Positions 19,760-52,069 of a DNA stretch of 64,000 nt are shown here, in pieces. Made by a program: the position numbers and the translations under genes. The DNA comes from a virus. Taxonomy: Duplodnaviria; Caudoviricetes. A model generated the notes under the pieces. It did not search any database. It was not told the DNA's origin and saw only the letters and a program-made list of their open reading frames with translations. How positions within the stretch are numbered: the stretch's first letter is position 1; each line of letters starts with the position of its first letter. Location of the stretch: IMG/VR virus record IMGVR_UViG_3300037189_030782, one strand, 5' to 3'.

Positions 19760-20677
19760 ATGAATCAAAAAAGCATTAAAGAGTACATAAGAGCATTAGA
19801 TCACATTAGTAGTTTTCTGAAAACTCTTCTAGAAGAAGAGAATAAAATTGTACCTTTTCAAAAAGGTGAAAGGGACAGGCTATCAGAAATAACAGAACTA
19901 AGGATGTTGGCTAAATCAGATGTTTGGCCTGAGGCGGTGCCGCCAGAACTAATATGCAACGATATAGAAGAAGAAAAAATGTCAAGAGCCGCTGGCATTG
20001 TTCAAGACTTCATAGCAATGGATCTAAAAGAAAAATCATTCTTGGACTTTGGATGTGGAGAAGGCCACGTTCCATACGTTGCTGCCACTCTATATGAATC
20101 TAAAAATGTTGTTGGATATGATATAAAAAACCAAGACTGGGCAGCTCTTGACCCACACGATGAATTAAAATTCACGACAGAATGGGAAGATGTTAGAAGA
20201 AAAGGACCATATGATATTATTTTAATAAACGATGTGCTTGATCACTGCAAAGATCCAGCTTCTACACTACAAATGATCCAAGAAGTCAAAAAGCCTATCG
20301 ATGGGCAAGTTTTTCTAAGAATACACCCTTGGACAAGTCGCCATGGATCACATCTTTATAAACAATTAAATAAAGCCTATCTACATTTAGTTTTTACAAA
20401 AGATGAGCTGTATGCAATGGGGCTAGAACCTCCAGAAATTTTAAGAATAATAAACCCAATCAAAACATATAAAAGATTCATCAAAGATGCAGGGTTTACA
20501 ATACTCAAAGAAAGTGTGGTAACTCAACCAGTAGAGTTGTTCTTCACCCACACCCCAGAAGTACTTCGAAGAATAAAATCCAATTGGAGAAATAGCGACG
20601 AACCAAAATTAGCTTCTGGTGAGTTGTTTCCAAGAGAAATATTAGAAATACAGTTTATAGACTTTACTTTGATCTAA
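19760..20677 (+). CDS. Class I SAM-dependent methyltransferase
   Basis: FLDFGCGEG motif I, VVGYDI, YDIILINDVLDH. Confidence 0.8.
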   Translation: MNQKSIKEYIRALDHISSFLKTLLEEENKIVPFQKGERDRLSEITELRMLAKSDVWPEAVPPELICNDIEEEKMSRAAGIVQDFIAMDLKEKSFLDFGCGEGHVPYVAATLYESKNVVGYDIKNQDWAALDPHDELKFTTEWEDVRRKGPYDIILINDVLDHCKDPASTLQMIQEVKKPIDGQVFLRIHPWTSRHGSHLYKQLNKAYLHLVFTKDELYAMGLEPPEILRIINPIKTYKRFIKDAGFTILKESVVTQPVELFFTHTPEVLRRIKSNWRNSDEPKLASGELFPREILEIQFIDFTLI

Positions 20678-28259: not shown

Positions 28260-28472
28260 ATGGAGCCTTTAAGTAAAAAATTTCTTATCGAAAGAGGAGT
28301 TTGTTGTGGATGCAAATGCACAAACTGCCCCTATTGGCCTAAACATAAAAAAGGCCAGACTCTTCTATACGAAAAGAGTCTGGCCTTTTTAAATCAAGAA
28401 AATTGTTTTTCAGCTTCTATCCAAAAAGAAGATCCATCACAGTCGGGACGACCTGCTTCTTCCCAAAGATAA
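28260..28472 (+). CDS. DUF5522-like small Cys-rich protein
   Basis: FLIERGVCCGCKCTNCPY; AGGAG SD upstream of ATG 28260. Confidence 0.6.
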   Translation: MEPLSKKFLIERGVCCGCKCTNCPYWPKHKKGQTLLYEKSLAFLNQENCFSASIQKEDPSQSGRPASSQR

Positions 28473-30062: not shown

Positions 30063-30151
30063 TTTTATGGTTCACTCGGTGGTGATGTTAAATCTTTGCT
30101 TTTGGTTCACTCGGTACTTCTGTTGATATCTTGTTAGCGTCATATGGTTTT

Positions 30152-30188
30152 ATAAACCGGGAGAGTTGGTTGTCCTCTCCCGGTTTAT
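30152..30188 (-). terminator. Strong hairpin / probable terminator downstream of the 68-aa gene
   Basis: Perfect 14-bp stem ataaaccgggagag / ctctcccggtttat; U-tract is short. Confidence 0.6.
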
Positions 30189-30200
30189 CATCTTTTTATC

Positions 30201-30407
30201 TTACTCTTTTAAGACAATTCTTTCTCCATTGGAACCGCCTAATGCAGCACCTCCTTTCAAGAAAGACAAAGTCATATTTATTTCCCAATCAGCAGAGCCT
30301 TGCCTTTTCATAGAAGCAATTAGCTCTTCTTTGGTTACCTCTACAATCTTAGGGTTCTTATTCCTAAGATCGTTGAGTCCTTGTAAAACAGCAGCACTAA
30401 AAAACAT
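30201..30407 (-). CDS. Hypothetical 68-aa protein downstream of the SAM riboswitch
   Basis: ORF lies between the structured leader and the terminator; GAGAG SD-like tract. Confidence 0.65.
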   Translation of the reverse strand: MFFSAAVLQGLNDLRNKNPKIVEVTKEELIASMKRQGSADWEINMTLSFLKGGAALGGSNGERIVLKE

Positions 30408-30460
30408 GGTTACTCTCTCTCTGTTAAAGGGAGATCAAGAAGGCGGATAATCCGCTTTTT

Positions 30461-30555
30461 CACAGGAAACACTCCTGTGCGTATCCCAGCAAAGATAGCT
30501 GGTGGCACCGTGGCTTTTGCTCGGTTGCCAGTGCCTTTCGGCACCTTCTTAATAC
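30461..30555 (-). ncRNA. SAM riboswitch, SAM-I/IV-type architecture
   Basis: GUAUU(P1)-AAGAAG-GUGCC GAAA GGCAC(P2)-UGGCAACC..GGUGCCA(P3)-CCAGC..GCUGG(P4)-GAUAC(P1')-CACAGGA..UCCUGUG(P5). Confidence 0.8.
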
Positions 30556-30569
30556 TTCCTACAAAAATT

Positions 30570-30597
30570 AGTATAGCACTAGGTTTTGACTTGTAAA
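30570..30597 (-). promoter_or_regulatory. Sigma70-type promoter driving the riboswitch transcript
   Basis: TTTACA-16 nt-TATACT with an extended TG motif. Confidence 0.65.
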
Positions 30598-31606: not shown

Positions 31607-31870
31607 TTATCTGTGCCATCTTGCTATTTCTTTATCCAAATCACCTAACTTTTCTAAAGCAGCAACAATTTGTTTCACCCCAGAAGAACCCAAGTTCTCT
31701 ATTGAAGAAATCTGTTTCTCATTTAAAGAAACTAAGTCCTTTATATAAATTAAGTTGTGCTTAGAATCTTCCAAGGCATTAATTACCCTTAAAGGAAGAC
31801 CAAGATACTCTAATTCAGCTATAGGGATGTTTTCTTTAATCGCCTTTTTTGTCAAATCGTTGTTTATCAC
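31607..31870 (-). CDS. Stand-alone RNA polymerase alpha-subunit C-terminal domain homologue
   Basis: IAELEYLGLPLRVINALE...IKDLV...ISSIENLG..GVKQI matches the alpha-CTD HhH pattern. Confidence 0.8.
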   Translation of the reverse strand: MINNDLTKKAIKENIPIAELEYLGLPLRVINALEDSKHNLIYIKDLVSLNEKQISSIENLGSSGVKQIVAALEKLGDLDKEIARWHR

Positions 31871-43693: not shown

Positions 43694-43726
43694 AAAAAAA
43701 GACCCAATATTAGATATTGGGTCTTT
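43694..43726 (-). terminator. Rho-independent terminator
   Basis: 13-bp stem aaagacccaatat / atattgggtcttt followed by U7 on the - strand. Confidence 0.8.
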
Positions 43727-50539: not shown

Positions 50540-51542
50540 AAAAGTTCAAAAAATAACATTTTTCGTCTTTTTCACCGAGCAATACGGCATGAATGAGTTT
50601 GTTTCTAATTAAGCTACGGTCGAAAGCATTCAATGCTTCATGCTTTGATTTGTAAGTTTGGAAAATATTTTCACAGTCCAAGAAACAATAGTTCTCATCA
50701 CTTTGTTGTATTATCTGTATACTTGGCACAACCACACAAAAATTGTCGAATATGGGTTTTTCGTTTGCTTGTGGAAATTTTTCTAAAATCTTTAATGCCT
50801 TCTTTGTTCTTTTAGAAGCTATATCAAAAAAAGCACGAAGAGGGTAAACTCTTGGCTCATAAAGAACCTCACCGTACGGAGCAATATGCCCTACAATCAA
50901 GTTTTCTGATATGTGAAACCCCATTATCTTAGCTAAAATAGTTGAAGTTGAAAGTATACTGATAGGGTGAAAACCGTAATACAACTTGTTTGTCTCTTCT
51001 ATAAGACCAATAGAATTCTTAACTTCATCTGCTAGAAACATGCACCCTATTTCTTCGTATCTTTTTGCCTTCTTATTCGCCAGCTTAATATCATTTTTGT
51101 AAGACTCATCAAACCTCATAAATTTATCAAAAGAATCAGGAGATGACTCCCAATTACTTTGTAGATTTTTGCAGAAAGAATATAGATCAATATTTTGAAC
51201 ATTTTTTAAAGATCTTATTTCTTCTCTAAGTGATTTGTTTTTTATAAGCCTTGTTTTAAAAGAAGAAAAAGAAGTTACTTTAGAAATTGAAGAAATTATC
51301 TTCTCTTCTGAGAAATTTCCTTCTATCAAAGAATAAAAAATCTCTAAAATATCAGGATGAGTCTCATCTACTTTACCTTCAAATACAGTATCAGTAAATT
51401 CTTTAAGTAATTGTCTTACTTTTTTTAGCGACAATGAGGCCAATATATCTCTGCGTCCAGAAATGTATATTCCTTTGTCAGACTTACTCAAAAGAGAAAA
51501 ACAAACTTCTTGAGTTTTTGGAACACTACTTTTGAACTTCAT
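50532..51542 (-). CDS. Hypothetical protein (336 aa)
   Basis: Coupled ORF between infC and the ALDH gene. Confidence 0.65.
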   Translation of the reverse strand: MKFKSSVPKTQEVCFSLLSKSDKGIYISGRRDILASLSLKKVRQLLKEFTDTVFEGKVDETHPDILEIFYSLIEGNFSEEKIISSISKVTSFSSFKTRLIKNKSLREEIRSLKNVQNIDLYSFCKNLQSNWESSPDSFDKFMRFDESYKNDIKLANKKAKRYEEIGCMFLADEVKNSIGLIEETNKLYYGFHPISILSTSTILAKIMGFHISENLIVGHIAPYGEVLYEPRVYPLRAFFDIASKRTKKALKILEKFPQANEKPIFDNFCVVVPSIQIIQQSDENYCFLDCENIFQTYKSKHEALNAFDRSLIRNKLIHAVLLGEKDEKCYFLNFFD

Positions 51543-52069
51543 GATGATACTTTAGGACTTAAACAACAAATTATTTTATTTCCATCAAGCTTTGGAGGCC
51601 TATCTAAAAGAGAAACCTCAGATAAACTTGAAATAATATGATTTATAACTGTAAAACCTTTTTCTTTATGTATCAGTTCTCTTTGACCCTTAAACATCAG
51701 ATTAAACTGAACTTTCATCCTGTCTTCCAAAAAATCCTTGGCTTGTGAAATTTTAACGGCTATATCGTTGTCAGCTATAGTAGGCCTTAATCTTAATTCC
51801 TTTATTTGAACCTTAGATTCTTTTTGTTTTTTAGCCTGCTCTTTTTTCTTAAGTTGTTGTTCGTATTTAAAGCGTCCATAATCAATTATTTTACAAACAG
51901 GTGGCTTTGCTGCTGGGGCGACTTCAACCAAGTCGAGCCCAGCTTCTTCGGCAATCCTTCTTGCCTTATCTGTATTCATTACACCAAGTTGTTTGTCATC
52001 CATGACAACACGAACTTGAAAAGATTTAATCTTCCAATTAATTCTAAAATCTTCTGGATCTATCGACAT
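51539..52069 (-). CDS. infC: Translation initiation factor IF-3
   Basis: IN..I...VRV...QLGVM....A...A....LDLVEVAP..KPPVCKIIDYGRFKYE...KELRLRP.I..ND. Confidence 0.96.
   Translation of the reverse strand: MSIDPEDFRINWKIKSFQVRVVMDDKQLGVMNTDKARRIAEEAGLDLVEVAPAAKPPVCKIIDYGRFKYEQQLKKKEQAKKQKESKVQIKELRLRPTIADNDIAVKISQAKDFLEDRMKVQFNLMFKGQRELIHKEKGFTVINHIISSLSEVSLLDRPPKLDGNKIICCLSPKVSS

Follow-up and report, generated by a model that had tools for sequence, protein, structure and literature searches.

What would a SAM-sensing RNA control in a phage, and is the 68-codon gene that lies directly behind it the output? The question was raised by a stretch of 64,000 nucleotides of viral DNA (the window), for which a preliminary description had placed an orphan 68-aa protein between a SAM riboswitch and a perfect 14-bp hairpin, taken the gene for the sole apparent output of the switch on a transcript that looked monocistronic, and proposed MetK, MetJ, a methyltransferase or a restriction system as a possible target of its product. 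The gene order is as described there (Table 1). On the models presented here, regulation of the 68-aa gene by the switch is likely, and a function of the protein is proposed only tentatively.

Table 1 Features of the switch cassette in the window
Feature	Position	Strand	Details
Sigma-70-type promoter, TTTACA-16-TATACT, extended -10 TG	30570..30597	(-)	-35/-10 conserved in four switch-bearing lineages
SAM-I/IV-like aptamer	30445..30560	(-)	Rfam RF01725
Aptamer P1	30555-30551 with 30485-30481	(-)	Aptamer folding/alignment
Aptamer P2, GNRA loop	30545-30530	(-)	
Aptamer P3	30529-30504	(-)	
Aptamer P4	30502-30486	(-)	
Aptamer P5	30479-30461	(-)	
P6, short GC hairpin	30443..30455	(-)	Stem conserved, loop variable
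Anti-aptamer strand	30430..30443	(-)	Predicted SAM-free pairing with 5' leader, P1 5' strand and J1/2
Predicted OFF hairpin	30413..30434	(-)	Anti-Shine-Dalgarno strand 30434-30426 and purine-rich ribosome site 30422-30413
68-aa protein gene, 68 codons	30201..30407	(-)	ORF translation, homologues, codon changes, AlphaFold2
Perfect 14-bp hairpin, 9-nt loop, without U-tract	30152..30188	(-)	Past the stop codon
Conserved 46-bp block, two GAGTGAACC units	30069..30114	(-)	93-96% identical in L010, L014, L130 and L131

The source is a huge myovirus-like phage. The 68-aa protein is encoded on a 381-kb contig, and PHROGs matches to baseplate wedge proteins, primase, ligase, polymerase and PhoH identify the window as phage DNA. 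The phage has a use for SAM, since it encodes a class I SAM-dependent methyltransferase (window 19760-20677, +), located beside a family 2 glycosyltransferase. Among other genes of interest, a phage translation initiation factor IF3 (window 51539-52069, -) scores above the TIGR00168 cut-off; its identity to bacterial copies is 37-43% across four phyla, which gives no host assignment. A stand-alone RNA polymerase alpha C-terminal-domain protein (window 31607-31870, -; PF03118, E 1.2e-8) is a possible transcription decoy. In a related genome, L001, a SET-domain gene is found 3.4 kb upstream of the switch.

Across the whole window, Rfam recognized a single RNA, the SAM-I/IV aptamer (52.2 bits, E 1.2e-5; gathering score 41.1). 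Folded alone, the aptamer forms P1-P6 with z = -4.09. In all four lineages that carry the switch, P2 is an uninterrupted 6-bp stem with a GNRA loop and P4 comprises 5 bp. PK-1 is absent, and the P5 hairpin sits 3' of P1. A SAM pocket is present, composed of the A-U/U-A pairs in P1, AAG in J1/2 and the GCAACC/GGUGC internal loop in P3. The motifs AU-AAG, GCAACC, GGUGC and GAU are intact, and the pocket nucleotides are invariant across lineages. In this assignment, we take the pocket positions of the aptamer to correspond to those of SAM-I numbering, and SAM is the presumed ligand. The positions that form the pocket in known SAM switches are listed in PMC6890682.

SAM-I/IV RNAs are defined by a P2 without an internal loop, the absence of PK-1 and the presence of P4 (PMC2864571, PMC6890682). 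The phage leader resembles this class (RF01725, clan CL00012; Weinberg 2010, PMC2864571) in all these respects as well as in its SAM-I-type pocket and the location of P5 after P1. It differs in that no PK-2 is detectable, the tip of P3 varies freely among lineages (with a 4-nt loop in the window), P6, an anti-aptamer strand and an anti-Shine-Dalgarno platform are added, and the RNA is phage-borne and located upstream of an orphan gene. In the window, the best duplex between L3 and the tail spans 2 bp (-2.2 kcal/mol); in the relatives, where the loop differs in sequence, every duplex found competes with P3b and P6. Because regulation by the solved SAM-I/IV RNA (env87, structures 4L81 and 4OQU; PMC8525861) is reported to depend on PK-2, we filed the phage leader as a SAM-I-clan variant rather than as a canonical SAM-I/IV riboswitch.

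The same promoter and aptamer occur upstream of 68-aa homologues in three other lineages, where the aptamers match RF01725 at 45.6, 44.7 and 39.4 bits, the last of these below the 41.1 cut-off. The aptamer core is 92-98% identical across the four lineages, far more than the four-fold codon sites of the gene (54-71%) or the promoter spacer (8-54%), which indicates that the RNA is under selection. All 31 aptamer pairs of P1-P5 hold in the four lineages, and the 8-bp P5 shows two double compensatory changes; with only four lineages, the covariation is statistically weak (35/500 shuffles).

The genes that follow the aptamer differ between lineages. In L010, as in the window, the aptamer directly precedes the 68-aa gene (direct layout), and a related strain retains the window's arrangement on one contig across the region, with only 47 extra bases. 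In L013 and in the single lineage represented by L001, L002, L003, L005 and L011, the aptamer is followed by another gene, X (94-110 aa), which ends 4 nt before the start codon of the 68-aa homologue (X-first layout). The 68-aa gene is the single ORF common to all four switch-bearing cassettes. L006, which encodes a close homologue, has no switch upstream and instead carries another gene 36 nt upstream; a tRNA gene is found 1.3 kb downstream of this homologue (L006:1656-1731). L008 has no aptamer and only a trace of the platform together with a 9-codon remnant of gene X, and no switch was found within 4 kb of the distant homologues in L261 and L263. Leaving out L014 and L015, which are too short, and two contigs without DNA, the switch is linked to the gene in 4 of 6 judgeable close lineages and in 0 of 2 distant ones. 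The association of the protein family with SAM riboswitches, which the preliminary description had offered as a check, thus holds for most close lineages, where homologues do follow the same riboswitch, and breaks down in L006, L008, L261 and L263.

Gene X or its 3' end precedes the 68-aa gene in L001/L011, L013, L014 and L015 and is missing both from the window's locus and from the entire 64 kb. In L010, the ribosome site resembles a GAAAGG-microhomology join between the ribosome site of X and the X/68-aa junction and, judging from its sequence, looks like the deletion join that removed X; the window and L010 arrive at the direct layout via different ribosome-site sequences. Trees did not have the resolution to establish that X was lost independently. 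The X protein (L001:4712-4996, L013:365-697) belongs to no family, with no match above cut-off in NCBIfam or Pfam, and falls into just three clusters. It shares a C-terminal motif, LTD-EWAE-RKECE-I, with the products of two tandem ORFs of L015 (L015:1-362), in each case on a different N-terminus, a pattern suggestive of cassette shuffling. The gene that precedes the distant homologue in L131 was considered as a candidate gene X and rejected (E 0.12).

Full-leader folding predicts two alternative states. The anti-aptamer pairing, formed by a strand downstream of P6, is mutually exclusive with P1 and was matched by 0.85% of shuffles in the window and by 0.05-0.1% in the relatives. When P1 is forced, the computed cost of opening the ribosome site in the window rises from 3.3 to 6.0 kcal/mol; the increases are +2.7 kcal/mol in the window, +1.1 in L010, +7.6 in L001 and +7.5 in L013. 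The platform of the window differs in sequence from those of the relatives, yet both alternative pairings are kept. From these computed folds, the leader is predicted to be a translational OFF switch: high SAM would shut translation down and low SAM would permit it. When SAM is absent, the downstream strand would pair with the 5' side of P1, leaving the ribosome-site hairpin looser and allowing the 68-aa protein to be translated. When SAM is bound, P1 would be held and the freed strand would lengthen that hairpin, so that translation would drop. The phage would thereby read the SAM level of its host and make the 68-aa protein under SAM scarcity.

Predicted switching is not equally strong at all loci. 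The anti-Shine-Dalgarno pairing was matched by 47% and 24% of shuffles at the direct-layout loci (window and L010) versus 0.6% and 2.6% at the X-first loci. The direct-layout loci also have the strongest preference for the SAM-free fold (6.6 and 8.8 kcal/mol) and may be biased towards ON. Switching is thus predicted to be weakest at the two direct-layout loci and strongest at the X-first loci. The stronger predicted switching of the ribosome site in the latter suggests that X may be the original target, and the platform may have been tuned on gene X first.

The promoter ends 15 nt upstream of P1, and its -35 and -10 boxes are conserved in all four switch-bearing lineages, with a divergent spacer. 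The same promoter type (TTTACA, then TG-TA-A-T) is present at the next cassette (window 29738-29711, -) and at L001:5422 and L010:2411, so that the region appears as a run of promoter cassettes. At the other end, the 14-bp hairpin is probably a 3' end or a stabilising stem. The 64 kb contain just two other perfect stems of at least 12 bp, at window positions 28348-28390 (17 bp) and 43698-43726 (13 bp). Strong stems of different sequence occupy the equivalent place in L001, L008, L014 and L015, and none is present there in L006, L010, L013 and L130. The hairpin is followed by A residues rather than a U-tract, the terminator scan makes no call, and a 102-codon ORF begins 90 nt past it with no promoter-like site between. 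A monocistronic transcript is accordingly no more than plausible. For a translational switch, the 68-aa gene would be the direct output whether or not transcription stops at the hairpin. It is the first and only gatable gene in this genome, which agrees with its proposed role as sole output; across the family that role is narrower, as X comes first in two lineages and four homologues are switchless.

Downstream of genes of the 68-aa family, we observed a repeat unit, TTTAACA-N8/9-GAGTGAACC, in 1-4 copies about 35 bp apart (window, L001, L008, L010, L011, L013, L014, L130 and L131). The unit is 96% identical even next to a distant 68-aa homologue, and its copy number varies in a related strain. 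The window's ribosome site resembles one such unit. The repeat may be a recombination or protein-binding element.

The 68-aa ORF itself is, on sequence criteria, a real gene under purifying selection. Its translation matches exactly the sequence quoted in the preliminary description, its codon changes relative to L001 comprise 20 synonymous and 6 non-synonymous ones, and its differences from 4 homologous genes are mainly at third positions and mostly synonymous. Nine clusters of close homologues (72-93% identity) and eight further clusters of more distant ones (34-61%), all aligned over the full length, make the protein a member of a small phage family and no singleton. All homologue contexts seen are phage-like runs of small genes. 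In the family alignment, residues E28 and G37 are invariant and L11, E23, G61 and R63 nearly so; there is no conserved cysteine or histidine, and the net charge is near neutral. We also looked for a longer, fused form of the protein and found none, which is weak evidence; the search for more distant homologues did give two long hits.

AlphaFold2 confidently predicts an alpha-beta-alpha-alpha-beta-beta fold with a C-terminal strand pair (pLDDT 89.2; 94.1 for residues 17-68). The score of a predicted homodimer, 0.34, is below the mark of 0.42. The protein belongs to no family in Pfam, PHROGs or NCBIfam and has no solved relative among PDB sequences. Fold searches with the full model and with residues 17-68 returned nothing above background: the best structural matches had Z scores of 3.9-4.5, none reaching 5, Foldseek E-values exceeded 1, and all Atlas feature hits were below 0.9, including winged-helix clusters at low scores of 0.82-0.84. 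The sole recurring structural echo was the helix-turn-helix unit of RecX (3dfg, Z 3.9, rmsd 2.0 over 40 residues). The 68-aa protein shares the strand-helix-turn-helix-strand core of the RecX three-helix repeat and the winged helix; it differs in being a single unit, in carrying an additional, conserved amphipathic helix at its N-terminus and in lacking a basic recognition helix. Both the RecX echo and the winged-helix hits are within the background for models this small. The homology and Foldseek searches thus gave a family of phage homologues and no known family or fold.

Consistent with the preliminary description, the protein does not resemble any Met/SAM synthesis or transport protein in Pfam, PHROG, NCBIfam, PDB or fold searches. 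SAM lyases were absent among the matches listed in the PDB sequence and fold searches, and neither sequence nor fold provided a link to SAM metabolism. No gene for Met, SAM or sulfur synthesis or transport was identified downstream of the phage switch, whether as the 68-aa gene (Pfam, PHROG, NCBIfam) or as X (NCBIfam, Pfam). Given its small size, near-neutral charge and lack of conserved cysteine or histidine, we infer that the protein, rather than being an enzyme or a DNA mimic, most likely acts by binding another protein, without catalysis. No evidence points to MetK, MetJ or any methyltransferase, the partners suggested earlier.

Wider searches did not extend the distribution of the system. 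Neither IMG/VR nor GenBank phages yielded the 68-aa gene, gene X, the repeat or the switch, and a GTDB pattern scan gave only chance-like hits among the matches listed. The phage switch model found nothing in two phylum-level sets of 150 genomes, one centred on a Planctomycete and the other on a Verrucomicrobium, nor did the 68-aa protein profile in 301 genomes of the first phylum. One Planctomycetota genome (G112, locus L264) contains a weak SAM-I/IV match of 38.2 bits upstream of non-metabolic-looking ORFs, which the phage switch model does not detect. The nearest virus record, G001, a fragment that is 21% complete, is without the 68-aa gene, the switch and MetK.

The switch may instead have evolved for X, with the 68-aa gene an ordinary accessory early gene that came first after deletion of X and is under incidental or weak SAM control. 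The order of X or its remnant in the relatives, the join-like ribosome site of L010, the strongest predicted switching at X-first loci, the distant homologues in gene strings without a switch and the cassette shuffling in the region all point this way. However, the window aptamer is still 92-94% identical despite the missing X, and its platform keeps both pairings in a different sequence, and we regard this explanation as rather unlikely. Even less probable is that the RNA is no longer a SAM switch and has become a sensor of another ligand, a structured leader or a small RNA. The lack of PK-2, an A instead of the consensus G at position 13, a U-G wobble that closes P1 in the window and the one lineage below the cut-off would fit such a change; the invariant pocket nucleotides and the conserved, mutually exclusive platform argue against it. 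We put somewhat better than even chances on the 68-aa gene being a genuine low-SAM-induced output, a judgement that excludes the target of the protein.

With regard to that target, a protein made at low SAM would suit the restoration or sparing of SAM or the pacing of infection. The most likely purpose, tentative and at well below even odds, is that the 68-aa protein restores or spares SAM for phage methylation by binding an enzyme or regulator of the host Met/SAM cycle. The full scenario, in which a clade of huge phages senses host SAM via a PK-2-less SAM-I-clan riboswitch and responds to low SAM with a new family of small effectors that rewires Met/SAM metabolism for phage methylation, is on the unlikely side. 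So, in our estimate, is a reading that shares its regulatory half with this scenario, in which SAM is a mere cue of the nutritional state of the host and the protein acts outside SAM chemistry, in recombination, transcription or infection timing. The RecX echo, the winged-helix clusters and the homologues that work without a switch in other phages fit that reading; the structural matches do not rise above background, and feedback on SAM supply is the usual role of known SAM switches. An anti-restriction role, either by lowering SAM or inhibiting MetK or as back-up protection for phage DNA that low SAM has left under-methylated, is improbable. The gene is small and has an early-type promoter, and there is a precedent in T3 SAMase (gp0.3), an enzyme about twice as long as the 68-aa protein. 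T3 SAMase, which is a SAM lyase and also inhibits MetK, overcomes BREX as well as type I restriction-modification (10.1101/2023.02.27.530186) and, like the switch described here, ties a phage gene to the host SAM pool. Among the matches listed, the 68-aa protein shows none to it in sequence or fold, and a SAM destroyer would require expression opposite to that predicted here. Inhibition of MetK or of SAM-dependent restriction would be called for at high SAM, which fits the predicted logic badly, and a SAM-OFF switch would silence a SAM-lowering factor just when SAM-dependent defence is active. The near-neutral charge is also unlike that of an Ocr-type DNA mimic. Only the back-up version fits the switch logic, and it has no direct support.

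Riboswitches in phages have been called rare (PMC5473149, PMC9004378). The only types listed in the papers found are c-di-GMP and glutamine switches: c-di-GMP-I riboswitches of C. difficile prophages together with cyanophage glutamine aptamers (PMC5473149), and a glutamine switch in phage Melnitz (PMC9004378). The leader described here resembles them as a metabolite-sensing leader in a phage genome and differs in its presumed ligand, SAM. We found no report of a SAM-clan switch in a phage in a literature search whose coverage of subscription journals was thin.

Thus, a huge bacterial virus probably switches on the 68-aa protein when SAM is low and, to judge from their sequences, several related viruses keep the pairing of switch and gene. 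With its SAM switch conserved and its two-state platform complete, the phage may tune an early gene to the methyl-donor supply of its host. As SAM is a cofactor of restriction-modification and BREX defence, the switch lies near a known point of phage-host conflict. The phage leader offers a natural test of whether the SAM-I/IV scaffold switches without PK-2, and an orphan protein family gains a testable physiological handle.
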